A stretch of DNA of 64,000 nucleotides, taken from the NCBI RefSeq assembly GCF_041248615.1, contig NZ_CP158426.1; one strand, given 5' to 3'. Position numbers and translations under genes: made by a program. The DNA comes from Escherichia coli (GTDB lineage: Bacteria; Pseudomonadota; Gammaproteobacteria; Enterobacterales; Enterobacteriaceae). Below, in pieces: positions 13,272-28,040 of this stretch. The first letter of the stretch is position 1, and each line of letters starts with the position of its first letter. Below the pieces are notes generated by a model that saw only the letters and a list, made by a program, of their open reading frames with translations, was not told the DNA's origin and ran no database searches.

Positions 13272-15185
13272 TTACTTACGACCTGCCAGCAGTTCCAGCA
13301 CTTCATCCACGCTGGTGGTGTGTGCCAGACGTTCGATGACGGACTCATCATCCAGTGCATTGGTCAGGCTGGTGATAACCTGAATGTGCTCGTTGTTACG
13401 GGCAGCAATACCAATTACCAGACGGGCAATGTCATCTTCTTCTTCACCGAAGCGCACGCCTTCCGGGTACTGGCAGAACACCACGCCCGTTTTCAGTACG
13501 CGATCTTTCGCTTCAACCGTACCGTGCGGCACCGCGATAGACTCACCCAGATAAGTCGGGGTCAGTTTTTCACGATCCAGCATCGCCTGAACGTATTCTG
13601 GCTCAACGTAACCGCCTTTCACCAGCTGCTCGCCAGCAAAACGAATCGCTTCTTCTTTGGTGGCCGCTTTGCGACCGAGGAAGATGTTCTCCGCGCCTAG
13701 CTTGAACAGGTTAGCACTGGAATCGTCAAAGCTGTCTTTCAGACTGTCTTTCACTTTCACTTCGTTTTCAGTATGGCGCTGAGCAGCAACCAGACGTTCG
13801 GTCAGGCTGGTGTACAGGCCGCTGTCGAGGAAGTTGGTCAGCGAAATATGCTGTGCCTGCGGAACCTGGCGCATAGCGCGTTCGGTCAGGTCACGGTGAG
13901 TGATGACCAGGTCCACATCTGGCGGCAGGTTGTTGATCGCGCTGTTAGTAACAGAAATCTGCGACAGACCTGCATCCTGAATTTTCTTACGCAGCACACC
14001 TGCGCCCATCGCACTGGAACCCATACCGGCATCACAGGCAACGATGATTTTACGTACGTGGCTCAGGTCGTTAGTCACATCGCCTGCAGACAGCGGAGAC
14101 GCACCTTTAGACTCAGCTTTCATGTCCTGCATACGACGAGTTGCTGCTTCAATATCATCTTCTTCTTTCACTTTGCTGGTTTTCAGCAGAATGGCAGAGA
14201 CAACGAAGGAGACAGCCATCGCCGCACACACACCCGCGATGTTAGCGAAGTATGCACCTTTTGGTGTCATCGCCAGTACAGCAAGGATAGAGCCCGGAGA
14301 TGCCGGAGAAACCAGACCACCGCCCAGGATAGTCAGCGTGAACACGCCAGTCATACCACCGAGGATAACGGCCAGAATCAGACGCGGATTCATCAGCACA
14401 TACGGGAAGTAGATTTCGTGGATACCGCCCAGGAAGTGGATGATTGCCGCACCGCCCGCAGACTGTTTAGCGCTACCACGACCAAAGAACATGTACGCCA
14501 GCAGCACGCCCATACCCGGACCTGGGTTAGCTTCAATCAGGAAGAAGATGGATTTACCCAGTTCATGGGACTGCTGAATGCCCAGCGGCGAGAAGATACC
14601 GTGGTTAATGGCGTTGTTGAGGAACAGGATTTTCGCCGGTTCAACAAAGATAGACGCCAGCGGCAGCATGTCATGGACAACCATGAAGTTAACGCCCGCA
14701 GCCAGCATTTTGGACAGGGCTTCAACAATCGGGCCAATGCCGAGGAATGCCAGAATAGCGAGGATCATCCCGATGATGCCTGCGGAGAAGTTATTCACCA
14801 GCATCTCAAAACCGGATTTGATCTTACCGTCTACCCAGCGGTCGAAGTGCTTAATGCACCAGCCGCCCAGCGGACCTGCAATCATAGAACCGAGGAACAT
14901 CGGCATGTCTGCGCCGACGATAACGCCCATGGTGGTAATGGCACCGACTACGCCGCCACGTTCGCCGCCTACCAGCTTACCACCGGTATAACCGATCAGC
15001 AGCGGCAGGAGATAAGTGATCATCGGCCCGACCAGCTTCGCCAGCGTTTCGTTCGGTAACCACCCTGTTGGAATAAATAACGCGGTGATGATACCCCACG
15101 CGATAAACGCGCCGATATTTGGCATCACCATGTTGCTGAGGAAACGACCAAAGCTTTGCACTTTGATCTTAATATCGGATGACAT
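13272..15185 (-). CDS. mtlA: PTS mannitol-specific EIICBA component
   Basis: 637-aa [30 protein letters not shown]...; EIIC membrane domain with C-terminal EIIB/EIIA. Confidence 0.96.
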
Positions 15186-15328
15186 AAAAACACCCCTTCT
15201 TATGTTTGCTGTCGCGCAGGCTGGAAGCCCGAGGTTTTTTGTTAATGTGGCGGCAGAGGTAGCCGGACCTTGTAGATACTGCGAAATCTGGCACTGAATC
15301 GGTTAACTGTCCAGTCGACGGCCTTTTG

Positions 15329-15505
15329 TGTGATATCAGTCACATAAATATAGGGGGTAGAGAGGTAATTGACGTGATGCTCATCACAAAACTCTTGTGT
15401 AAAAAAGCAACAAGGCGGCGATTTTCGCTAAAAATGGCATTTAAATGTGAGTGATGTCACATTTTTGTTTTGATGGTTTGTTGAATTTTTGTGATCTGAA
15501 TCACA
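15329..15505. promoter_or_regulatory. mtl operon promoter region with an array of CRP-type sites (TGTGA-N6-TCACA)
   Basis: Three perfect sites: tgtgatatcagtcaca (15329-15344), tgtgagtgatgtcaca (15446-15461), tgtgatctgaatcaca (15490-15505); one near-perfect, cgtgatgctcatcaca (15373-15388). All upstream of mtlA on the minus strand. Confidence 0.6.
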
Positions 15506-15721
15506 AGATATTTTCTTACGGCGTTCACCTGATGTGATCTACAGCATGTTATGCCTTCGTCATGAAATCGTTATGTAACTAAGCAACTCATCACCTCTTA
15601 AAATTATTCTTTGGTGTTATGGCGAGAATCGCGAACCCGGATTATTGTCAAAATATCAGCCTGACTCCCTTCTGGCTGCCAGCCAAAAAACAACACCGAT
15701 AAACGTGAATCCGAGGCAGAT

Positions 15722-16084
15722 ATGTTTCTAAACTATTTCGCGTTGGGAGTGCTGATCTTCGTCTTTCTGGTGATTTTTTATGGAATCATCGCGATACATG
15801 ACATCCCTTATCTGATTGCCAAAAAGCGCAACCATCCCCATGCCGACGCTATTCATACGGCGGGCTGGGTGAGCCTGTTTACTCTACATGTTATCTGGCC
15901 GTTCCTGTGGATCTGGGCGACGCTCTATCAACCGGAGCGCGGCTGGGGCATGCAGTCACATGTTGCGTCGCAAGAGAAAGCGACTGACCCGGAAATCGCC
16001 GCACTTTCTGACCGAATTTCCCGGCTGGAGCATCAACTCGCCGCCGAGAAAAAGACTGACTATTCCACGTTCCCGGAGATCTAA
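15722..16084 (+). CDS. yibI: small inner-membrane protein YibI
   Basis: 120-aa ORF with N-terminal TM segment; 2 bp before yibH. Confidence 0.82.
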
Positions 16085-16086
16085 AT

Positions 16087-17223
16087 ATGGATCTATTGAT
16101 TGTTTTAACTTACGTGGCGCTGGCGTGGGCGGTCTTTAAAATCTTCCGCATTCCGGTGAATCAGTGGACGCTGGCGACGGCGGCGCTGGGAGGCGTGTTT
16201 CTGGTGAGTGGTTTGATTTTGTTGATGAACTACAACCACCCTTACACTTTTACCGCGCAAAAGGCAGTGATAGCGATCCCCATCACGCCACAGGTGACGG
16301 GAATTGTTACTGAAGTCACTGACAAGAATAATCAGCTTATTCAAAAGGGCGAGGTGCTTTTTAAACTCGACCCGGTTCGTTACCAGGCGCGAGTTGACAG
16401 ACTTCAGGCTGACCTGATGACGGCGACGCATAATATAAAGACGCTGCGCGCGCAGCTCTCTGAAGCGCAGGCCAACACCACCCAGGTTTCAGCGGAGCGC
16501 GACCGTCTGTTTAAAAATTATCAACGTTATCTGAAAGGCAGCCAGGCGGCGGTGAATCCGTTCTCGGAACGTGACATCGACGATGCGCGGCAAAACTTCC
16601 TCGCGCAGGACGCGCTGGTGAAAGGCTCGGTGGCGGAGCAGGCGCAGATCCAGAGCCAGCTCGACAGTATGGTTAACGGCGAGCAATCGCAGATTGTGAG
16701 CTTAAGAGCGCAACTTACTGAAGCAAAATATAACCTTGAGCAGACTGTCATTCGCGCGCCGAGCAATGGCTACGTTACTCAGGTACTGATCCGCCCAGGT
16801 ACATACGCAGCTGCCTTGCCGTTGCGTCCGGTGATGGTTTTCATCCCCGAGCAAAAACGGCAAATTGTCGCCCAATTTCGGCAAAACTCGCTGTTACGTC
16901 TGAAACCCGGCGATGATGCGGAAGTGGTGTTTAACGCGCTACCTGGGCAGGTGTTCCACGGCAAACTGACTAGCATTTTACCTGTCGTGCCAGGCGGTTC
17001 TTATCAGGCGCAGGGGGTATTGCAATCATTAACGGTCGTGCCCGGCACGGACGGTGTGCTGGGAACCATTGAACTGGACCCTAACGATGATATCGATGCC
17101 TTACCCGACGGCATCTACGCCCAGGTGGCGGTTTACTCCGACCATTTCAGCCATGTTTCGGTGATGCGGAAAGTGCTGCTAAGAATGACCAGCTGGATGC
17201 ATTATCTTTATTTGGATCATTGA
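16087..17223 (+). CDS. yibH: HlyD-family membrane fusion-like protein YibH
   Basis: 378-aa ORF with N-terminal TM segment, long coiled-coil and beta-barrel region typical of HlyD/EmrA-like proteins. Confidence 0.88.
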
Positions 17224-17680
17224 GGGGGGCGGGGGAGATTATGGAACTTTGCTCCCTGCAAGGACTAATTATTTTTGCATATTATTTCATCGGCTGTGAT
17301 GATTTTTCGTTAATATCCATTATGTTAAGAAGTTCGGGATGAGTGTGAACTCATTGGATTTTTTATCCGTCTTGATCTGCCGAAGGATCAGACTATACAT
17401 TGTCGAGATCGCAATGATGATATGAGTTGTTCCTCTGCCACGGCTCTAATCAAAAAAGAGCAGGAGTGCTTTTCCATCTATTGCGATGATGGCTTTATTA
17501 TCTGAAGGATGACAGTCACATTTAAAAATATTTAATTTATAGATCACAATGTAGGTTCATGTAATATATGTATACAACTATTTTTCTCTTCACTTTTAAT
17601 TATCGTATTCATTATAACACTAAGTTAAAAAAACTCCTGGAGAGTGAGTTATTAATATGTTTTTAAATATAATTAAGTTA

Positions 17681-18202
17681 TTATTCATCGATGCATTTTA
17701 TAGAATCATCAATGGCTACAATAGTACTATTAACTCTCCAATTTATATTTTTATTATCATTGCAAATATTAACTGAATCTATATCAATGATTTTTTTATT
17801 TTTATCTTTTATTTTGTTTACAGTTTCAATGCAATCAGCGACAAGTTGGTGTGGATTTAGATTCTTCAGATATGGTCTTATGATCTTTCCCTTGCTTAAT
17901 AAATAGCATGTATAGGATTCGGAAAGTCCAGCATCTATTTTGTACATCATTATTCTAGATAAGGATGTGAGAAATGCCTTGTTATCATTAGCAGCCATAT
18001 ATGCCAGTCCGAGTTCAGCCTCTGCGGCTTTACATGAAAAATAGCTAAGTGAACACGCTTTTCGTCCCTCTTGGGTACTGGCTGATATTAGTGCCCATAA
18101 TATTGCCTTGTCTGCCAAATCCAACTCTCTCTGAAATTGGTTTACAGTAACTGCATTCGCAGAAATAGAGAAGAAAAGCACAATTGTTAATAACCTTGTC
18201 AT
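17681..18202 (-). CDS. secreted hypothetical protein (Sec signal peptide); candidate periplasmic immunity protein of an orphan toxin module
   Basis: 173-aa ORF MTRLLTIVLFFSISANA|VTV...; AT-rich coding sequence; sits 4 bp downstream of the LDT-like ORF on the same strand. Confidence 0.45.
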   Translation of the reverse strand: MTRLLTIVLFFSISANAVTVNQFQRELDLADKAILWALISASTQEGRKACSLSYFSCKAAEAELGLAYMAANDNKAFLTSLSRIMMYKIDAGLSESYTCYLLSKGKIIRPYLKNLNPHQLVADCIETVNKIKDKNKKIIDIDSVNICNDNKNINWRVNSTIVAIDDSIKCIDE

Positions 18203-18206
18203 ATTT

Positions 18207-18482
18207 CTAGTCCGTCACTGTTAATGTGCTATCTGGCTCTGAAAATATTAGCTCATTTAATTTTTGCATGTCATTAGATGAACCAGTTATACAACCCTCG
18301 GAACAGAATCGAGGTCCTAAAGATGGACCAAAAGCGTTTAAACAACTATGTGTTAAAAATCCATCACGATTATACGTTTCTGTATTTGCTGACGGTACTA
18401 AACGTATACCATTAGGTTTTCTATTGGTTGCTCCAGGACTGTTAAGCAAGCCTCGTCCGGTTTGCTTCATTGAGTTCTCCAC
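18207..18482 (-). CDS. short ORF with L,D-transpeptidase-like catalytic motif (H-x16-S-x-G-C); candidate orphan toxin fragment
   Basis: 91-aa ORF with GTG start; ...LTHSCLNAFGPSLGPRFCSEGCITG... fits the YkuD H...[S/T]-x-G-C spacing. An overlapping 108-aa plus-strand ORF (18226..18552) cannot be excluded. Confidence 0.3.
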   Translation of the reverse strand: MENSMKQTGRGLLNSPGATNRKPNGIRLVPSANTETYNRDGFLTHSCLNAFGPSLGPRFCSEGCITGSSNDMQKLNELIFSEPDSTLTVTD

Positions 18483-18570
18483 TTTAGACTATTGGACTAT
18501 CTTTCAACATGGCATCGCCTTAGTATACCGCTGGTTTTCCGCTCATTGTTAATTTTCTCTTTCGTTCATT

Positions 18571-18981
18571 TCACTTAATTTTCAGTTTTTTCCAAAAGTC
18601 AATATTCCCTTCTAATAAAATTTTTTCTATGGAATCTTCATTAATTTTATTATTAGAGCATATGACATTATCTTGAACGCCATATGACACCACCCCGTTT
18701 TTATCAATATAATATCTGTCTTTACCATCAATAATATAAATCCTAACATTTTTATCATCAAAATGGTAACACTCATTACTAGACCTGTTCAGTAACATTA
18801 ATAACTTCTCACGATTTATCTGTAATAATTTTTGTGCACCATCTTTTATTGCAAAATTTTCAATTTTACTTTTAGTGACAGGGGAATATGTTTGGATGCG
18901 AAAAGGCATCCTATAATGGAAAACATCAGCTATACAGCAAGATGAAAAAAATACGGAAATAAAATACAGACATACTTTCAT
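18571..18981 (-). CDS. hypothetical protein immediately downstream of the rhs toxin tip; candidate cognate immunity protein
   Basis: 136-aa AT-rich ORF MKVCLYFISVFFSSCCIADV... with hydrophobic N-terminus; 57 bp after the rhs stop, the canonical immunity position. Confidence 0.5.
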   Translation of the reverse strand: MKVCLYFISVFFSSCCIADVFHYRMPFRIQTYSPVTKSKIENFAIKDGAQKLLQINREKLLMLLNRSSNECYHFDDKNVRIYIIDGKDRYYIDKNGVVSYGVQDNVICSNNKINEDSIEKILLEGNIDFWKKLKIK

Positions 18982-19038
18982 ACCATCTCCTAAACTGGTG
19001 ATATATTAAAAACATACCCAAAAGCAATATAAAAATGT

Positions 19039-21140
19039 TTAATATTTCATTCTTGCTGGCAAGCCCAACTCTTTACGAAATGGGTTTTCATATTTATCAA
19101 CATTAGCCATCGAGTCAGTTCCATCGTCTTTCATTCCCTTTGCATGCCCCATTTCATGCGCAAGAACCACACTCAACAGAGTGGGTTTCATGGCACATGC
19201 TTTGTTTTTTCCTTGATATACACATGAGCTATGGTCGTTATCAATATCAATGTAAAAACTATATTCAGTATCATCGTAGCATGTTTGGTTTATGCCTTTT
19301 CTTAATCCTCTAAATATATATTCATGCTCTGATGACTCTAATTCTTCTGTTATTTTATGTCCAAACTTTGTTTCTGCTACAGCTTTATATGCTTCTTTTA
19401 AAGTTTTTTGTGTACTTTCATCTCCCTGAAAAGACACTTTTAACCCTAATGGATCGAAACCAGATACCGGATTCAACGGATACTGATAAAAATTCCATCC
19501 CCCCTTAAGCCCAATCGGATCCTGAGTGATATACCGCCCCTGCAGCGGGTCATAATAGCGGTGGCGGTTGTAATAGAGGCCGGACTCCTCATCATACTGC
19601 TGACCCGGCAGGCGGATGAGCTGCTGCAGCTGGTGCGGGTTCTCTTCATTCAGCAGGTTGCCCCATTCATCGTATTCTGCGCACCATTCTGTTGCCCCTT
19701 CCGTGCTGACAAGCGCCAGCGGCAGGCCGCGATGGTCGCAGTGGTACAGGTGGATTTTTCGCGCCGGCGTGTACACCGGGTCCATCTGGTTTTGTATCTG
19801 CTCCACCGTCAGGCCGCACGATGCCAGCCAGCGGCGGCTTTCCTCACTCACCCGGTCAGCCAGGATTTCACTTTCCAGCCGGTCGAGCATCTGCACCAGC
19901 ACCGGCGGGAACACCACACTGCCACCGTCTTCACCGCCGGACTGCTGAAGCGCATCCGCCAGGCTGCGGCGCTGCGTTTTCGCCAGCTCACCGGTGGCAG
20001 TTTCAACTCTGATGAGTGGCGTGAAGCTCCCCGGCTGATAAACCGTCTGGATGCGGGTTCTGTCGTTCTGTATTGTGGTCAGCCGGTCGCCGTCCCAGCC
20101 GTACCAGGTCACTTCCGGTTTCCGTGACAGCGACATCCAGCCCGTCAGGTCCCGTTCACGCCGCCACACCCGTTTTGCCACCCTGCGGCCCAGCGGGTCG
20201 TAAAGATAGCGACTTTCGACCAGCGGCTCTGCATATTGTGTCCGCGTGTAGTGCACCAGCCGGTGCCGGCTGTCGTAATGGTACCGGTGAGTCCGCTCAT
20301 CATCCGTGCGGATAACCCCTTCCGGGATGAGGTCGGTTTTCTCCGTCAGCCTGCCGTGACGGTCATACCGGTAAAGATAGTGCGCGTCACGGGCGATACG
20401 GTTATCCGGCCACATGCTGAGGGTGCTGTCCGGGTGCAGCTCCGGGTCGGGCAGGCGGTTACCTGCCGGGTCCGTGGCATACGGGATGCGGATATCCAGA
20501 TTCGCTGCGGTGGTGTGGACGCCGGTCAGCCTGCCGGTGTCGCTGTAGCTGTAACTCCGGGTCTGGCGCGGGCTGCTGATGCGGATGAGTTCGCCGTTGT
20601 CGTTCCAGGTGTAATCGCGGTCATACTGCAGGCTGTTCAGGTGCTGGCTCTGTAACTGCCCGGCAGAGGTGTAAGCGGTGGTGAGTTCATAACGGCCGAA
20701 GCTGCGCAGCGTTTCCCGGTGCAGGCGGTCGCGGGTGTACTCCACCAGCGGTGTGTCGCCGAGTTTCATGCCTGACAGCCAGCCGCTGCCGTAGGTCAGC
20801 CATTCCACGGCGGGCAGGCTGTCCGGTATACAGCGGTTCGCCAGTCCCTGCGCGTTGTACGCATGTCTGGTTTCATGCTGCCAGAGCAGTGCTTCCGTCT
20901 GCGGGTGATGCACCGTCTGGCGCTCACCGGTCAGGCGGCCTTTCTCATCATACCCGTAATGCACCGTCACCCGGTGGCCTTCGCTGAGATGGCTGATTTG
21001 TGTCAGCCAGCCGCGTTCGTCGTACCGCCACTGTTCTGCGGTTTCACCATTCACCGTTCGCTGTGTGATGCGGTCTGCTTCGTCATAGTGCCAGTGGGTG
21101 ACCAGCCCCTCATCCTCGCTGCGGTGCGTATTACCGTGAA
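19039..21140 (-). pseudogene. rhs C-terminal segment: YD-repeat core end (…DPIGL…DPLGL) plus HExxH metallopeptidase-like toxin tip; separated from the rest of rhs by an IS21-family insertion
   Basis: ORF 19039..21159; Rhs YD repeats; core-end motif [39 protein letters not shown], then ~130-aa AT-rich tail containing [12 protein letters not shown]. Confidence 0.8.
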
Positions 21141-21209
21141 GGAGATCGGTGAGTAACATCGATGGAGATCGGTTCGTGTCACTTTCACAGAACCGTTTTT
21201 AAATTACCT

Positions 21210-21959
21210 TCACTGATCTCCTTCGGTCAACGGAGATTGTATTTTCCGCATTGATTCTCCTTTAAGTTCGATCTTGATACTGCCATGAACCAGTCGATCT
21301 AGGATGGCATCCGCATGTGTGGAGTCTCCGATCATTTTGTACCAGTTTTCCACCGGCAACTGGCTCACTACGATGATTGAGCCTCGTTGGTACATCAGAT
21401 CCACTATTTCCAGCAGGTCGCTACGCTGTTCTGATGAGAGAGGTTCCAGCCCCCAGTCATCCAGAAGCAGCAGATCGCTATTATTCAGCCTGGTCAAAAG
21501 TTTGCTGTATCTTCCATCAGCATGCCCCTGATAGCACTGTTCCATCAGCGCTTTAAGGCGATAATAGTAGACCTTGTATCCCTGTCGGCAGGCATTATGA
21601 CCAAGTGCACATGCCAGGAACGTTTTACCGCTGCCGGTGGCCCCGGTCAGTAAAATATTTTGTTTCAGGGTTAACCAGTTTCCCTGACTGAGTGAACGGA
21701 TGAGGGCCCTGTCCAGCCCTCTATTGTTACGATAATCCAGCTTTGATAACTCAGCATTAAGTCTGAACCGTGCATGTTTGATCAGACGCTCTGCCTTCCT
21801 GTTTTCACGGCAGGTTAGTTCTTCTGCTGTCAGTAATGACAGGCGTTCTTCGAAGCCCAGCTCCTGGTATGTGCCCGGCTGAGCAAGTTGCTTTTTAAGC
21901 GCATCACGGAAGCCGGTGAGTTTAAGTGCGGTCAGTTGTTCGTAAAGATGATTCATCAT
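21210..21959 (-). CDS. istB: IS21-family helper ATPase IstB
   Basis: 249-aa ORF with Walker A GATGSGKT and DnaC-like AAA+ fold signature. Confidence 0.9.
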   Translation of the reverse strand: MMNHLYEQLTALKLTGFRDALKKQLAQPGTYQELGFEERLSLLTAEELTCRENRKAERLIKHARFRLNAELSKLDYRNNRGLDRALIRSLSQGNWLTLKQNILLTGATGSGKTFLACALGHNACRQGYKVYYYRLKALMEQCYQGHADGRYSKLLTRLNNSDLLLLDDWGLEPLSSEQRSDLLEIVDLMYQRGSIIVVSQLPVENWYKMIGDSTHADAILDRLVHGSIKIELKGESMRKIQSPLTEGDQ

Positions 21960-21970
21960 TGGATCCCGTA

Positions 21971-23512
21971 TCAGTGGTAATACTCACTGCCGCGTACGTT
22001 TTCGTGTTCCATCGTGGATAACAGATCTGGTTTTGGATCCTGAACAGGTTGTTTATCCAGACCTTTTTCCAGGATCGATTTAATACCTGACAGACGCCAT
22101 ACCTTTGTTTTCAGAGCTCTTGCACATGCTGCATTAAGTCTGGCTTTACTGTATTTTTTATGAAGGTTCAGGAGTCCAAGGCAGAAGCGATAGCTTTGTT
22201 CCGGATGTGGACGAGAGTTCAGTATATGAAGCACATAACTATGAGTTTCACTGCCTATGTGCCCCGCCCATTCCAGAAGACGCTCTGGCGTCCAGGTGGC
22301 ATGCTGTCGATGAGCTTCAGGCATGTGCTCGTTGCGGGTACTGTAGCCATAAGTACGCTTGCGCGGGTGCACAGCAACCTCCTGCCCCTGATTGAAGAGT
22401 CTTACCAGTTCTCCGGAGATCCATGCTTCCAGTTGCTGGCCTAACAGCGAACATGGAACCGAGTAGTAATGTTTGTCGATTTCCACGTGGTAATCGGCAT
22501 GAACTCTGACTTTCTTCACCAGGGTGTAACTGTAACTGGCTTCAGGAAGAGGCTTCAGTGCGGGTTTATCAAGCTGGATGAAGAGTTCTGCACGTGAATA
22601 ACCCAACTTCTGCATTATTTTGTTATTCAGTCTTTCCAGCAACTCCCGAATGCGCTGATTAAGCGATGCAAGGCTGTAGAAGATCTCATGCCTGATTCGG
22701 GCCATGATCCAGCGTTCAACAACCTGAACGCCAACTTCAGCTTTGGCTTTATCTTTCGGTTTACGTGGCCGCGCAGGCAAAACTGCGACATTATAATGCT
22801 CAAGCATCTGCTGGTAGGTAGGGTTAACGTCAGGATCATACTTACATGCCCTGGATGTGGCGCTTTTCAGATTGTCCGGAACAACAAGTTCAGGAACGCC
22901 ACCCAACCACTGGAAGCAGCGAACATGACTCATCACCCAGTCTTCAAGCTGCTGAGACCAGGTGGCCTCTGCCCATGTGTAACTTGATGCCCCGAGAACA
23001 GCTACGATGACCTGAGCAGTTCTTATTTCTCCGGTCTCAGGGTCGGTAACGCCAACGGTAGGTCCACAGTAATCAACGAAAAGTTTTTCGCCAGCTTTAT
23101 GTACCTGACGCATTGATGGTGAAGTGGTTTTGAGCCATTCACGGTACATCCGGCAGTAATGGTTATAGCTGTAAAAACCGCCTGGATTACGCTCACAGTA
23201 TTCTTCCCAGAGTAGCTGCAGCGTCACGCATTTATTACGCAGTTCCCGGTGTACTGTAGCCCAGTCAGGCAGAGAGTGCTTCTTCATCTTAACCTGGGTC
23301 TGAAGGAACGCATGTTTTAGTTTTGTATCATCCCATCCTGTAGGTAAGGGCCACTGCTTTATGCCAAGTTGAGCCGCCCGATTAGCATATCTGGATACAA
23401 CGGAAGGGGAGATTGCAAGACTACGACCAATTTGTCGATGGCTGAGTCCAACACCGTATTTAAGCCTAAGAATTTCTTTAAGTTTTCTCATAGAAATTGG
23501 AACTGTTGGCAT
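21971..23512 (-). CDS. istA: IS21-family transposase IstA
   Basis: 513-aa ORF with N-terminal HTH and integrase-type DDE core; immediately upstream of istB. Confidence 0.9.
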   Translation of the reverse strand: MPTVPISMRKLKEILRLKYGVGLSHRQIGRSLAISPSVVSRYANRAAQLGIKQWPLPTGWDDTKLKHAFLQTQVKMKKHSLPDWATVHRELRNKCVTLQLLWEEYCERNPGGFYSYNHYCRMYREWLKTTSPSMRQVHKAGEKLFVDYCGPTVGVTDPETGEIRTAQVIVAVLGASSYTWAEATWSQQLEDWVMSHVRCFQWLGGVPELVVPDNLKSATSRACKYDPDVNPTYQQMLEHYNVAVLPARPRKPKDKAKAEVGVQVVERWIMARIRHEIFYSLASLNQRIRELLERLNNKIMQKLGYSRAELFIQLDKPALKPLPEASYSYTLVKKVRVHADYHVEIDKHYYSVPCSLLGQQLEAWISGELVRLFNQGQEVAVHPRKRTYGYSTRNEHMPEAHRQHATWTPERLLEWAGHIGSETHSYVLHILNSRPHPEQSYRFCLGLLNLHKKYSKARLNAACARALKTKVWRLSGIKSILEKGLDKQPVQDPKPDLLSTMEHENVRGSEYYH

Positions 23513-23693
23513 AGGTATCCTTTACCGGAATGGCAAAAGATACAGATCAACACACCTGTGAAGTTCCAATAACATTGATGGAGATCACTGAATAACAAAA
23601 TGAGTCAAAAGTGATCTCCATCGATGTTATTCAGCGATCTGTTCAAATGTTATTACCCGATCTCGATGGAAGTTATTGAGTGATCTCCTTTCA

Positions 23694-24723
23694 TGAAAAT
23701 ACGCACTGCGGATAAGTTTACCGGTCAGGTCGTGGTGATAACGCTGTGTGCGGCCGTCAAAGCCGGTTTCCTGTATCAGCCGGTCGAGTACATCGTAACG
23801 GAAGGTGGTGTGGCTGCCGTTTTCACTGGTCAGGCGGATGACCCGTCCGGCAGCATCGTATTCCATACTGCGCGTCAGACCGCCCTGTGTGGTACGGATG
23901 GCCTTTCCCCACGCATCGTACTGTGTCCCGTTTCTGCTGCCGTCCGGGGCAATGACGGCGGTCAGGTCACCGGCGGCGTTGTATTCATACCGCGTTTCAT
24001 GGCCCTGCGTGTCTTTCACCGCAATTAACTGTCCACGGCTGTCGTATGCGCGGTACTGACTCAGCCCTTCCTCGCGGTGCACCGCCGTCACCTGACCAAA
24101 ACGGTCATGGTCATAACGGGTTACATAACCGGAACAGTCAGTGACGGTCAGCAACTGACCGTAACGGCTCCATGTCATGGTTTTCCGGCTGCCGGTGGCA
24201 TCTTCCGTTGCGCAGGGTAAGTCACTGTGTGGATTATCATAACGGTAGCGGGTGATATCGCCGTTGTGTGCGGTTTCCTGAATCAGACGGCCGGATTCAT
24301 CATATTCCCGGCGCAATTCCAGCCCGTCAGGCCCGGTGGCTGACGTTAACTGGCTGTGGTGGTTATAGTAAAATGCCGATGCCCTGCCATCCGGTGTGGT
24401 GATGCGCGTGATGAGTCCCGTCACCACATCCGGGCTGTACTCAGTCGTCCGGCCTGCGGCATCCGTCTGTGCCTTAAGCCTGCCCACCGCGTCAAACTGA
24501 CTCTGCGTGACGCTGCCGTCCGCGTGTTCCTTTTTCACCACCCGCTTCAGCCCGCCTTCGCCCTGCGTGTGCAGCACTTCACGGCGGTCCAGGCTGTCGG
24601 TGATGGTGATGTGGTCTTTCTCATACTGATACGTGTAGCTTAAGCCTGCCGGGTTTAGCTGTTCTGTCACCCGCCCGTCACTGTCGTAACGGTAACGGAT
24701 TTCCGGCCGGCCCGTGTGACGGT
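23694..24723 (-). pseudogene. rhs middle segment (YD-repeat region) lying between the two IS insertions
   Basis: ORF 23627..24670 with repeated YD/RYxYD motifs (…RYRYDNPH…YVTRYDHDRFGQ…YEYNAAGDL…); frame continues upstream to the IS3-family boundary. Confidence 0.8.
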
Positions 24724-25478
<755 letters not shown>

Positions 25479-25582
25479 ATCAGCATACTTGTCCTTAGCC
25501 TTCTGCAGTGACAGCTGGTAGTACAGCGTGCTTCTGGCCAGCCCTGCAGCCTTTAACAGGTCAGACTGGCAGTGTCCGCACC

Positions 25583-26113
25583 TCAGGCTCCGGATGACTT
25601 TCGTTTTTTCTCCAGCTCCTGGCGCTTTTTTTCCAGGAGATGCTCCTGCATGGCTTTCAGATATGCATTTTCTGCGCGAAGATAACGCAGCTCATTCTTC
25701 ATCTCTTCCGGCGTCATGTTTGCCTCGTTTTCATGGGTATCATCAGAACGGGTCATGCTTTTCTCCTTCCTGCGCCTGATAAAGGCCTCATTACCAGATT
25801 TGCGGTAGCCTTTTATCCAGTTTTTAACCGTGTTGTGGCTGGGAATGTTAAACCGGGCAGCTACCCGGGGTAGAGACTCAGAATGCCCGAGAGCATAAAG
25901 AACCACGCAAAGTTTATCTTCAGGAGAATAGCTACGCTTGTGTCTGCAATCCAGTGCCCGAGGACCGTGAAGAAGAAAAAGATTAATCCAGTGTGAGAGG
26001 CTGGTGTGAGAAAGTTGAAAGAGTTTTGCCGTAGAAATGATGCCTGTATGACCAGCCAGGTAATGATTTACAGCGGCAAGTTTTACTTCAAATGAATGTT
26101 TCATAAACTGCAC
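25583..26113 (-). CDS. IS3-family transposase OrfA (HTH)
   Basis: 176-aa ORF with HTH region and leucine-zipper-like C-terminus; contains A-AAA-AAG slippery heptamer near its 3' end. Confidence 0.85.
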   Translation of the reverse strand: MQFMKHSFEVKLAAVNHYLAGHTGIISTAKLFQLSHTSLSHWINLFLLHGPRALDCRHKRSYSPEDKLCVVLYALGHSESLPRVAARFNIPSHNTVKNWIKGYRKSGNEAFIRRRKEKSMTRSDDTHENEANMTPEEMKNELRYLRAENAYLKAMQEHLLEKKRQELEKKRKSSGA

Positions 26114-26155
26114 CTTCAGATGTCAGATTATGTCCAACATTTGGGGTGCAGTTCA

Positions 26156-27203
26156 GGTGCGCCACCATCCGGCCCCGGTATTTATCATCGTAAGTAAAGC
26201 TGCGCACCTGTGTATTGCTGCGGTCATACACCGCCGCCAGTTCGCCGCGTGGCGTCCAGCCATAGCGCACCAGCGGCGCGGCAGGTAAATTCTCCGGGTA
26301 TTCCGGGTCGTGCGTCAGCCACACGGCAGACAGACGGATGCCGTTGTCCCGGCCATATTCGGTGTAACCCGGCAGGGTATCAGGAAAAACGGACGGTTCC
26401 ATCCCGCCGGAAATGGCCTGCTGCCGGGCTTCTTCTGCCCGCTGCGCCTGCGTGGTCAGTACCAGCCGGAAGTGACGCCCGGCACCATCCGTCACGCCGG
26501 TGATTTCGCCGCTGAATTCGCCGCCAGCCTCACGGTGGAACGTCTGTGTGCGCCCGAAGCGGTCCACCAGCCCGGTCAGTACCCGGTACGGCGGCAGCGG
26601 CGCAGGCAGCACCTCATCCGCCTCCGGCACCCGCTCACACCAGCCGAGTACCCACCACGGCCCCTGCGGACTGTTCGTCGCCAGATAACGATGCGGACTC
26701 AGGCGAAGCTCTTCCGGCAGCGCCTGCCAGAGTGCGGCCAGCCGGTGACCTTCATCCAGTTTCGCCACGCCGCCGCGCACCAGCCAGAGTGACTCGCTGC
26801 GGCTGTAACCGTCCTCACCGGGAAACAGGTGCTCAAAATACAGGCTTCTGCCGCCGTTATCACTGAGTATCAGTGTGTTATCGCGCAGCTGTAAGCGGAT
26901 ATCCGCAGGCATTTTCCAGCCGGGGCCGAGGCTCCCCACCGGCGCGGGCGTTTTTGTCCGGTAACTGCTGTAGGTGCGGGAGAGGATGAACGGCAGCGGG
27001 CCGGGCAGGGCAAGGTCGGTTTCGCCGGGAAGGACCTTCGCGCCGAGCAGCGGATTGACCGGATGGCCGGACGTCACCCCGCCGGGGCACACCGAACAGG
27101 CCACGCCGGTGGGGGCACCGATGCGCACCCCGGCTGAACCCTGGACAATGCTACCGCCATACTGCGTCATGTCGCCCTGACGCGCCGCCGGTTTTCCGCT
27201 CAT
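26156..27203 (-). pseudogene. rhsA: rhs N-terminal segment (PAAR-like N-terminus), truncated by the IS3-family insertion
   Basis: Starts MSGKPAARQGDMTQYGGSIVQGSAGVRIGAPTGVACSVCPGG..., the conserved Rhs N-terminus; divergent from yibF as recalled for rhsA; reading frame runs into the IS. Confidence 0.82.
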
Positions 27204-27431
27204 CTGCTCATCCTTGTTTTATCGGGTTATTTGTCTGCTGACAGGCGAAACCCTACAGATTTATAAGAAAGCCTTAAGTGAGATATCTGTCAAATAAGAA
27301 CAATTAGGAAAATATTTATATCACCATGATAAATATGTGATTTATTGGGAAGTAACAAACCATCAACATTTTCTGCCCTTTTTCCCATCACCAGGCCATA
27401 CTGATATTTTTCCTCGCACAAAGGACTCGGC

Positions 27432-28040
27432 ATGAAACTCGTCGGTAGCTACACCAGCCCGTTTGTACGCAAACTTTCTATTCTGTTGTTAGAAAAGGGC
27501 ATAACTTTCGAATTTATTAATGAACTGCCCTATAACGCGGACAACGGCGTGGCGCAATTTAACCCGTTAGGAAAAGTGCCGGTGCTGGTGACCGAAGAGG
27601 GCGAATGCTGGTTTGATTCGCCGATCATCGCTGAATATATTGAATTAATGAATGTCGCTCCGGCGATGTTGCCGGGCGATCCGCTGGAGTCGTTGCGGGT
27701 GCGCAAAATTGAGGCACTGGCGGATGGCATTATGGATGCCGGGCTGGTATCGGTGCGTGAACAGGCGCGTCCAGCGGCGCAGCAGTCTGAAGATGAATTG
27801 TTACGCCAGCGGGAGAAAATCAACCGCAGTCTGGATGTGCTGGAAGGATATCTGGTCGATGGCACACTCAAAACCGATACGGTCAATCTGGCGACTATCG
27901 CTATTGCCTGTGCCGTCGGATATCTCAATTTCCGCCGCGTTGCGCCAGGTTGGTGTGTCGACCGCCCACACTTAGTCAAACTGGTCGAAAACCTGTTTAG
28001 CCGCGAAAGTTTTGCTCGCACCGAACCGCCAAAGGCTTGA
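27432..28040 (+). CDS. yibF: glutathione S-transferase family protein
   Basis: 202-aa ORF with N-terminal thioredoxin-like GST fold; synteny upstream of selA. Confidence 0.9.

Follow-up and report, generated by a model that had tools for sequence, protein, structure and literature searches.

What does the AT-rich stretch between yibH and the resident rhs gene at the rhsA locus of Escherichia coli encode, and might any of it still serve the cell? We examined this question in a 64,000-nucleotide window of E. coli contig NZ_CP158426.1 (assembly GCF_041248615.1). An initial annotation, made from the sequence alone, had placed here two minus-strand open reading frames (ORFs), an N-terminally truncated YkuD-like toxin and, 4 bp behind it, a signal-peptide protein as its immunity partner, and had likened the pair to the orphan cassettes found downstream of rhs genes. 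Both ORFs, the 4-bp gap, an overlapping plus-strand ORF at 18226..18552, and the AT-richness (GC content of 0.28-0.39 over 17400-19499, flanks of 0.44-0.64) exist as described. We consider it about 85% probable that the region represents an orphan toxin/immunity cassette in decay, located at the end of the rhsA locus nearest yibH. The analysis establishes what both genes are, where the toxin was truncated, which fold the parent toxin domain has, and that the adjacency of toxin and immunity genes is conserved. Of the identity and history of the cassette we are highly confident, and its immunity gene may still protect the cell, a reading that we favor only slightly.

An intact Imm57 gene behind a truncated toxin domain

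The gene closest to yibH, at 17681..18202 on the minus strand, starts with ATG and encodes an intact Imm57-family immunity protein of 173 amino acids (aa), followed by a stop codon. The protein matched Pfam Imm57 (PF15596) with an E value of 2e-44 and 150 bits, residues 30-127 aligning with positions 2-100 of the 100-position model, and in a 100%-identical genome RefSeq names it 'Imm57 family immunity protein' (WP_000197506.1). Its first 17 codons (18152..18202, minus strand) read as a Sec-type signal peptide, MTRLLTIVLFFSISANA, with a basic n-region, a hydrophobic core, and A-x-A at positions -3/-1. Cleavage is predicted after A-N-A, ahead of a valine. Hydrophobic, signal-like starts were also present in all seven divergent Imm57 homologs inspected. 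An AlphaFold2 model built with eight homologs was all-helical, with a mean predicted local distance difference test score (pLDDT) of 85.7; the first 20 residues were of low confidence (53-62), as expected for a signal peptide. In the alignment of these eight homologs, D90 was invariant and a D-A-G-x-S-E...C...G...L core was common to them, the D-A-G-x-S-E...C motif (residues 90-99) being present in most and substituted in some. Zhang et al. 2012 (PMC3482391) characterized Imm57 as 'mostly alpha; D, SE, C', and the 173-aa protein shows both the mostly alpha fold and the conserved D, SE, and C in model and alignment. It is predicted to be a periplasmic, all-alpha protein. NCBIfam holds no family matching the Imm57 protein, the toxin relic described below, or the full-length toxin domain, and neither the toxin nor Imm57 had a sequence relative among PDB chains.

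Upstream of the Imm57 gene, a 91-aa ORF with a GTG start occupies 18207..18482 on the minus strand, and the four nucleotides AAAT (18203-18206) separate its TAG stop from the Imm57 ATG. The proposal that this ORF is a toxin fragment holds for residues 16-91 only. DNA alignment identified its last 76 codons (P16-D91) and the TAG, at 18207..18445, as the relic of a Rhs C-terminal toxin domain of the Tlde1 type, which has an L,D-transpeptidase fold. A three-way DNA alignment with strains ECONIH1 and K-12 placed the 5' homology breakpoint at 18439-18445. The first 15 codons, including the GTG, are not toxin and derive from unrelated junction DNA; homology to all other alleles stops at this 5' extension (18446..18482, minus strand, about codons 1-12). 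Within it, GGAG (18480-18477) lies 6 nucleotides (nt) upstream of an ATG (18470-18468), which judged from the sequence is a more plausible start than the GTG and would yield an 87-aa product corresponding to the database protein P0001.

Relatives of the 91-aa ORF were found in the database with E values of 1e-51 to 1e-8; like the Imm57 match of the 173-aa protein, these are much too strong to be fortuitous. One close relative is a 153-aa partial 'RHS element protein' that runs from TDIDPLGL directly into ATCLYSITL and carries PF10908. The ORF itself matched the Pfam Tlde1_dom model (PF10908) at a borderline level (E=0.0013, 19.6 bits, positions 66-107 of 120 only). In ECONIH1, the DNA of the relic is part of a longer minus-strand ORF that continues uninterrupted from the Rhs core into a 145-residue C-terminal domain and is followed by the Imm57 gene. 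RefSeq names the ECONIH1 product 'tlde1 domain-containing protein', and the relic is 99.1% identical to its DNA with no nonsynonymous differences. This full-length sibling (135 aa) matched Tlde1_dom with an E value of 2.2e-7 and 31.7 bits over model positions 10-106 of 120. Neither the relic nor the sibling matched YkuD (PF03734), even at E<=10. The L,D-transpeptidase-like character and the motif (here His-x15-S-E-G-C) recognized in the initial annotation stand, and the family is Tlde1/DUF2778 (PF10908) rather than YkuD.

A HMMER scan of 1.84 billion representative proteins at E<=0.001 returned 169 cluster representatives of the toxin domain. In the relatives inspected, the domain almost always forms the extreme C-terminus, directly after a DPxGL-type Rhs/YD core motif, and several of these proteins are Rhs-sized (1378-1616 aa). 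An alignment of 48 sequences revealed 22 invariant or near-invariant positions in the 145-aa domain, from C3 through V143. The AlphaFold2 model based on this alignment (pLDDT 93.9; predicted template modeling score 0.89) comprises eight strands and one helix in an L,D-transpeptidase fold; kinship to Tlde1a and YkuD is visible at the fold level only. According to this model, the domain is a Tlde1-type member of the L,D-transpeptidase fold with H99 and C118 in its predicted catalytic motif. Besides the catalytic cysteine, C3, C14, C43, C101, and C114 are invariant or nearly so in the Rhs-borne Tlde1-type domains. These five conserved cysteines suggest disulfide bonds, as would suit folding and activity in the periplasm.

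The relic retains the catalytic motif (18291..18350, minus strand): His45 (18350-18348), 15 residues, then Ser61-Glu62-Gly63-Cys64 (18302-18291), with I65 next. These residues correspond to H99, S115, G117, and C118 of the 145-aa domain, which are invariant or at least 90% conserved in the 48 homologs, and they fit the motif HXX14-17-(S/T)HGCh described for Tlde1 and L,D-transpeptidases (PMC9638812). The N-terminal truncation suspected earlier is extensive, since residues 1-69 of 145 and the whole Rhs core are missing. Gone with them are four of the eight strands (2-6, 11-15, 27-34, and 61-65) and half of the conserved positions (C3, C14, S34, G35, N37, C43, N46, G56, P57, P59, and G61), while L82, P84, R93, H99, C101, C114, S115, G117, C118, E136, and V143 are kept. 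The window copy is therefore a fragment of a family member with an incomplete Tlde1 catalytic domain, and a non-functional one. Replacing single conserved residues in the active-site region and the capping subdomain of Tlde1a abolishes toxicity (PMC9638812), which suggests that half a domain cannot be an enzyme. Because it lacks a Rhs shell, a signal peptide, and homology to the Rhs core, the relic can be neither delivered nor recombined onto rhs. We infer that it is dead, neither a working enzyme nor a deliverable one.

Association of the two families does not depend on this locus. Zhang et al. 2012 (PMC3482391) listed Tox-LD-peptidase as a partner toxin of Imm57 and reported its pairing with Imm16/Imm57. 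The same C-terminal domain occurs in the full-length Rhs proteins P0074 (1385 aa; 52% identical) and P0078 (1570 aa; 50% identical), which come from unrelated metagenomes, and genes for Pfam-Imm57 proteins with signal peptides start 1 nt after the former and 18 nt after the latter. In a third case, the gene after the Rhs fragment P0067 encodes an Imm57-like protein of 132 aa with a signal peptide and a DAGGSEDLDC core. A fourth is suggestive: the ORF after a distant toxin homolog matched Imm57 in BLASTP (E=5e-5) with no Pfam match. Imm57 directly downstream of an LD-peptidase-type toxin was thus seen in the window (relic, 4 nt), in ECONIH1 (intact orphan), and behind P0074 and P0078. The adjacency in the two metagenomic contigs confirms the pairing published in 2012, and it bears out the proposal that the signal-peptide protein is the immunity partner.

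The rhsA locus and its allelic states

Both the ORFs of the window and a RefSeq-annotated identical genome identify the region as the E. coli rhsA locus, with the order mtlA-yibI-yibH, cassette, rhs. On the minus strand, the rhs gene (19039-...) is followed by a 136-aa ORF (18571-18981), the toxin relic, and the Imm57 gene. A 1.8-kb query spanning the cassette found 100%-identical matches in many complete E. coli genomes. The RefSeq annotation of CFSAN061763 follows the order of the window: yibH, the Imm57 family immunity protein WP_000197506.1, a gap with no annotation, a hypothetical protein of 136 aa, a 1380-aa 'RHS element core protein', and yibF. The toxin stump is the only unannotated element of the cassette. 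Gene order in the window, CFSAN061763, ECONIH1, and K-12 agrees with an orphan cassette downstream of rhs, as had been suggested.

Among 5426 complete E. coli genomes, the cassette was found in 3695, in three structural states. About 3400 genomes, including K-12 MG1655, O157:H7 strain 8368, and HS30-1, carry an allele 92-93% identical to the window. This allele contains the Rhs core piece, a disrupted toxin frame, and an Imm57 gene annotated as frameshifted, with one frameshift inside the signal peptide. About 170 genomes have the ECONIH1-type allele with the full orphan toxin and Imm57 both intact, and 180 have the window allele with truncated toxin and intact Imm57. Together with the 136-aa gene, the segment 18446-19040 was present in exactly 180 of the 5426 genomes, always in the same arrangement, suggesting that the junction probably arose once. 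Between window and K-12, differences at codon positions 1/2/3 of the minus-strand frames number 3/6/9 in the toxin and 8/10/19 in Imm57, an excess at third positions that may be a weak trace of past purifying selection.

The K-12 copy lies at 9082-10193 of the MG1655 contig segment and is 92.5% identical to the window cassette; judged by this alignment, the small ORFs that K-12 carries downstream of yibH represent pieces of a Tlde1-type/Imm57 orphan module. E. coli strain 144, which has the window allele, carries a second rhs locus adjoining rpmE/priA (4911252-4925550), where a K-12-type 5' half of a Tlde1-type toxin fragment lies beside a frameshifted ISAs1 transposase.

The history of the cassette can be traced as follows. 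Comparison shows that the ancestor was a Rhs protein whose DPxGL core motif led directly into a Tlde1-type domain of 145 residues with a His/Cys active site, and that the Imm57 gene lay 4 nt downstream of the toxin. The cassette itself would have originated as a displaced orphan module. Judging from characterized Tlde1 and Rhs systems, the toxin would have been delivered to the periplasm of neighboring cells, most likely by type VI secretion. By analogy to characterized relatives, it would have cut or exchanged the terminal D-Ala of peptidoglycan stem peptides (L,D-carboxypeptidase/exchange), and Sec-exported Imm57 would have bound and blocked it in the periplasm. Rhs-DUF2778 fusions and the periplasmic toxicity of Tlde1 with its catalytic His and Cys have been described, enzymatic activity and periplasmic toxicity being known only for Salmonella Tlde1a (bioRxiv 10.1101/2020.02.18.954545; PMC9638812). 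Through a deletion or illegitimate join at 18439-18445, the window lineage lost the Rhs core fragment together with toxin residues 1-69, and a different rhs tip, a HExxH toxin with a 136-aa gene, now lies upstream. The leftover 87-91-aa ORF keeps His and SxGC without half of the beta-sandwich and at most may aid the expression of Imm57. Imm57 itself would today most likely act as stand-alone orphan immunity to Rhs-Tlde1-type toxins of other Enterobacteriaceae.

The resident rhs gene differs from this ancestor at its tip. Its 3' part (19039..21124, minus strand; NCBIfam RHS_core and Rhs_assc_core) encodes the Rhs core and a C-terminal domain (19042-19500, minus strand) with a HEMGH zinc-peptidase motif and a weak Peptidase_M91 (NleD-like) match (E=0.0012). 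Collinearity with the intact 4143-bp gene of CFSAN061763 ends at 21124, and relative to that gene the resident copy is interrupted by two insertions, 21125-23705 and 24724-26155. The first contains an IS21-family insertion sequence (IS) element (istB 21210-21959, istA 21971-23512), and the second contains an IS3-family element of 1.4 kb (transposase ORF 24756-25478). Because these two elements split its gene, the main Rhs toxin of the strain is also inactivated. By its position directly after the resident rhs, the 136-aa ORF (18571..18981, minus strand) is the presumptive cognate immunity gene. It has a hydrophobic, signal-like N-terminus (MKVCLYFISVFFSSCCIA), had no family match in NCBIfam or PADLOC, and co-occurs with the junction in every case. 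From the sequence, the HExxH Rhs tip and the 136-aa ORF look like an uncharacterized metallopeptidase-type Rhs toxin/immunity pair. We considered Imm57 as immunity to the HExxH toxin and rejected this, since the cognate slot is held by the separate 136-aa ORF and since Imm57 tracks Tlde1-type C-terminal domains in independent loci.

On the other side of the cassette lie mtlA (13272-15185, minus strand), yibI (15722-16084), and yibH (16087-17223). PADLOC reported nothing relevant at the cassette, and an Rfam scan of 15000-27500 gave no match. Farther away, between the lld genes and the mtl operon, a 1439-aa ORF (4968-9287, minus strand) had several matches to trimeric autotransporter adhesin models (Ata, EmaA, and YadA types).

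Known systems and competing explanations

The cassette combines features of several described systems. Tlde1 (PF10908/DUF2778), exemplified by Tlde1a of Salmonella Typhimurium (PDB 7UMA) with its immunity protein Tldi1a, is a small stand-alone effector, whereas the domain described here is the C-terminal tip of a Rhs protein, is about 19% identical to Tlde1a, and has a His-to-Cys spacing of 19 positions (H99 to C118) instead of 10 (H121/C131; bioRxiv 10.1101/2020.02.18.954545). Its immunity protein is the all-alpha Imm57 and not Tldi1/DUF2195, and in the window only the last 76 residues of the domain survive. Rhs-DUF2778 fusions of the Tae7/Tlde1c family, such as Shigella sonnei WP_052983304.1, have the same order of Rhs core, DPxGL, LD-peptidase domain, and Imm57, an architecture reproduced in the two metagenomic full-length Rhs loci and the ECONIH1 orphan. 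The window copy, by contrast, is a 5'-deleted remnant without Rhs core, its likeness to WP_052983304.1 being one of family architecture.

Orphan rhs-CT/rhsI and cdiA-CT/cdiI modules (Poole et al. 2011, PMC3150448; Koskiniemi et al. 2014, PMC3967940) likewise lie after the resident rhs and its immunity gene, are AT-rich, and consist of a toxin gene followed by an immunity gene. Typical modules, however, keep the DPxGL core segment that enables recombination onto rhs. The Rhs core up to DPxGL is present in the ECONIH1 and K-12 alleles but absent in the window, where homology begins at toxin residue 70, and with core segment and half the toxin lost there is no way for the module to be re-armed. 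Immunity genes that are orphan or acquired, and poly-immunity islands (e.g., Rap1a/Tai orphan immunity in Salmonella SPI-6), also provide intact periplasmic immunity without a working cognate toxin, but here Imm57 is still joined to the stump of its own toxin and is not part of an immunity array. Such an array was observed elsewhere: on a Logan contig of SRR31736489 (5268-13170), two Imm57-type genes, a Rap1a-type gene, MafI2, and DUF7668 form a toxin-less group between housekeeping genes (gapA/msrB on one side, pncA/ansA on the other) that looks like a poly-immunity island. The presence of Imm57 genes in a toxin-less island with Rap1a and MafI2 fits stand-alone immunity use.

Whether Imm57 protects today is the point on which the evidence divides. 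Several observations speak against a function kept to the present. The Imm57 gene is frameshifted in some 3400 genomes, so that selection for it is evidently often absent. The window and ECONIH1 copies of Imm57 differ at 3 nt, too few to test selection, the third-position excess relative to K-12 is slight, and an intact gene could merely reflect a young allele. A promoter and terminator scan of the cassette gave no excess over shuffled sequence, and the resident rhs gene is itself disrupted. No type VI secretion genes lay next to the cassette in the part of the window that was examined or next to the Rhs genes on the metagenomic contigs of P0074 and P0078, and the searchable literature yielded no experimental work on any Imm57 protein or Rhs-Tlde1 fusion. 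It is possible, though we doubt it, that both genes are inert relics and that Imm57 is intact only because its allele is young, giving no protection or not being expressed. Frameshifts in the majority E. coli allele, the many fragmentary ORF calls among database entries, a promoter signal not above background, the breakage of the upstream rhs operon by IS21- and IS3-family insertions, and substitutions too few to show purifying selection all speak for this reading. However, an intact 173-aa Imm57 occurs in at least two structurally different alleles (about 170 and 180 genomes), and a copy from Escherichia sp., 87% identical and the one close Escherichia locus recovered by the genome-contig scan, is intact as well. 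Moreover, Imm57 genes are gathered in a toxin-less immunity island, and orphan immunity is expressed and protective in the analogous contact-dependent inhibition system (PMC3150448), in a report that also describes orphan rhs-CT/rhsI modules.

A role for the 87-91-aa ORF itself, as minimal toxin, Imm57-binding decoy, or leader coupling ribosomes into Imm57, appears improbable. Its frame is open, GGAG stands 6 nt before the ATG at 18470, the frame ends 4 nt before the Imm57 ATG with His and SxGC kept, and the 87-aa product (P0001) is annotated in some GenBank records. It is not annotated by the NCBI Prokaryotic Genome Annotation Pipeline in identical genomes, though, and since the Shine-Dalgarno sequence and start codon lie in DNA made by the deletion junction, they are most simply accidental. 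With half of the eight strands and 11 of the 22 conserved positions gone, where single Tlde1a substitutions already abolish toxicity (PMC9638812), and with the periplasm out of reach for a product lacking signal peptide and Rhs shell, the toxin and its delivery are lost. Hardly credible is the notion that the plus-strand ORF at 18226..18552 is the real gene and the minus-strand similarity incidental, even though its 108-aa frame is uninterrupted in the window. In the K-12, O157, and HS30-1 alleles this frame is interrupted by a stop codon, and in ECONIH1 it ends differently; its last third is encoded by unrelated DNA beyond the recombination junction that it crosses, and it is annotated in none of the genomes examined. 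The minus frame has strong protein homology, and allele differences favor its third positions. We therefore rejected the plus-strand ORF as a gene and regard it as an antisense shadow. The initial annotation had named in advance three outcomes that would speak against it, namely, no significant YkuD/Tlde1 profile match together with no predicted L,D-transpeptidase fold, homology of the 173-aa protein to a characterized unrelated protein, and a real plus-strand gene. None of the three occurred: what was found is a Tlde1-type L,D-transpeptidase fold, an Imm57 protein, and a plus-strand ORF with an in-frame stop in the K-12-type allele.

We thus return to a decayed orphan cassette with an intact immunity gene. 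It is tempting to go further and speculate that Imm57 is actively kept as stand-alone immunity against Rhs-Tlde1 toxins, that the three allelic states record an ongoing arms race within the species, and that the accidental Shine-Dalgarno sequence and ATG could drive Imm57 translation through the stump, although this extension is tentative.

Implications for the rhsA locus and the Imm57 family

Much of what the cassette contains was already known: the toxin family, the immunity family, their pairing, the fusion to Rhs, and the phenomenon of orphan modules have all been published, and the sequence is deposited in RefSeq with Imm57 named. The finding explains the AT-rich stretch at the rhsA locus and the unannotated ORF within it, with little import beyond annotation. 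The K-12 region downstream of yibH can accordingly be read as a more decayed version of the same Tlde1-type/Imm57 cassette. No published test of Imm57 neutralizing Rhs-borne L,D-transpeptidase-like toxins was found in the literature, and the natural series of intact, half-deleted, and decayed alleles could serve for one. If Imm57 is indeed maintained as immunity, the cassette would provide an entry point for the first experiments on the Imm57 family and on Rhs toxins that target peptidoglycan.

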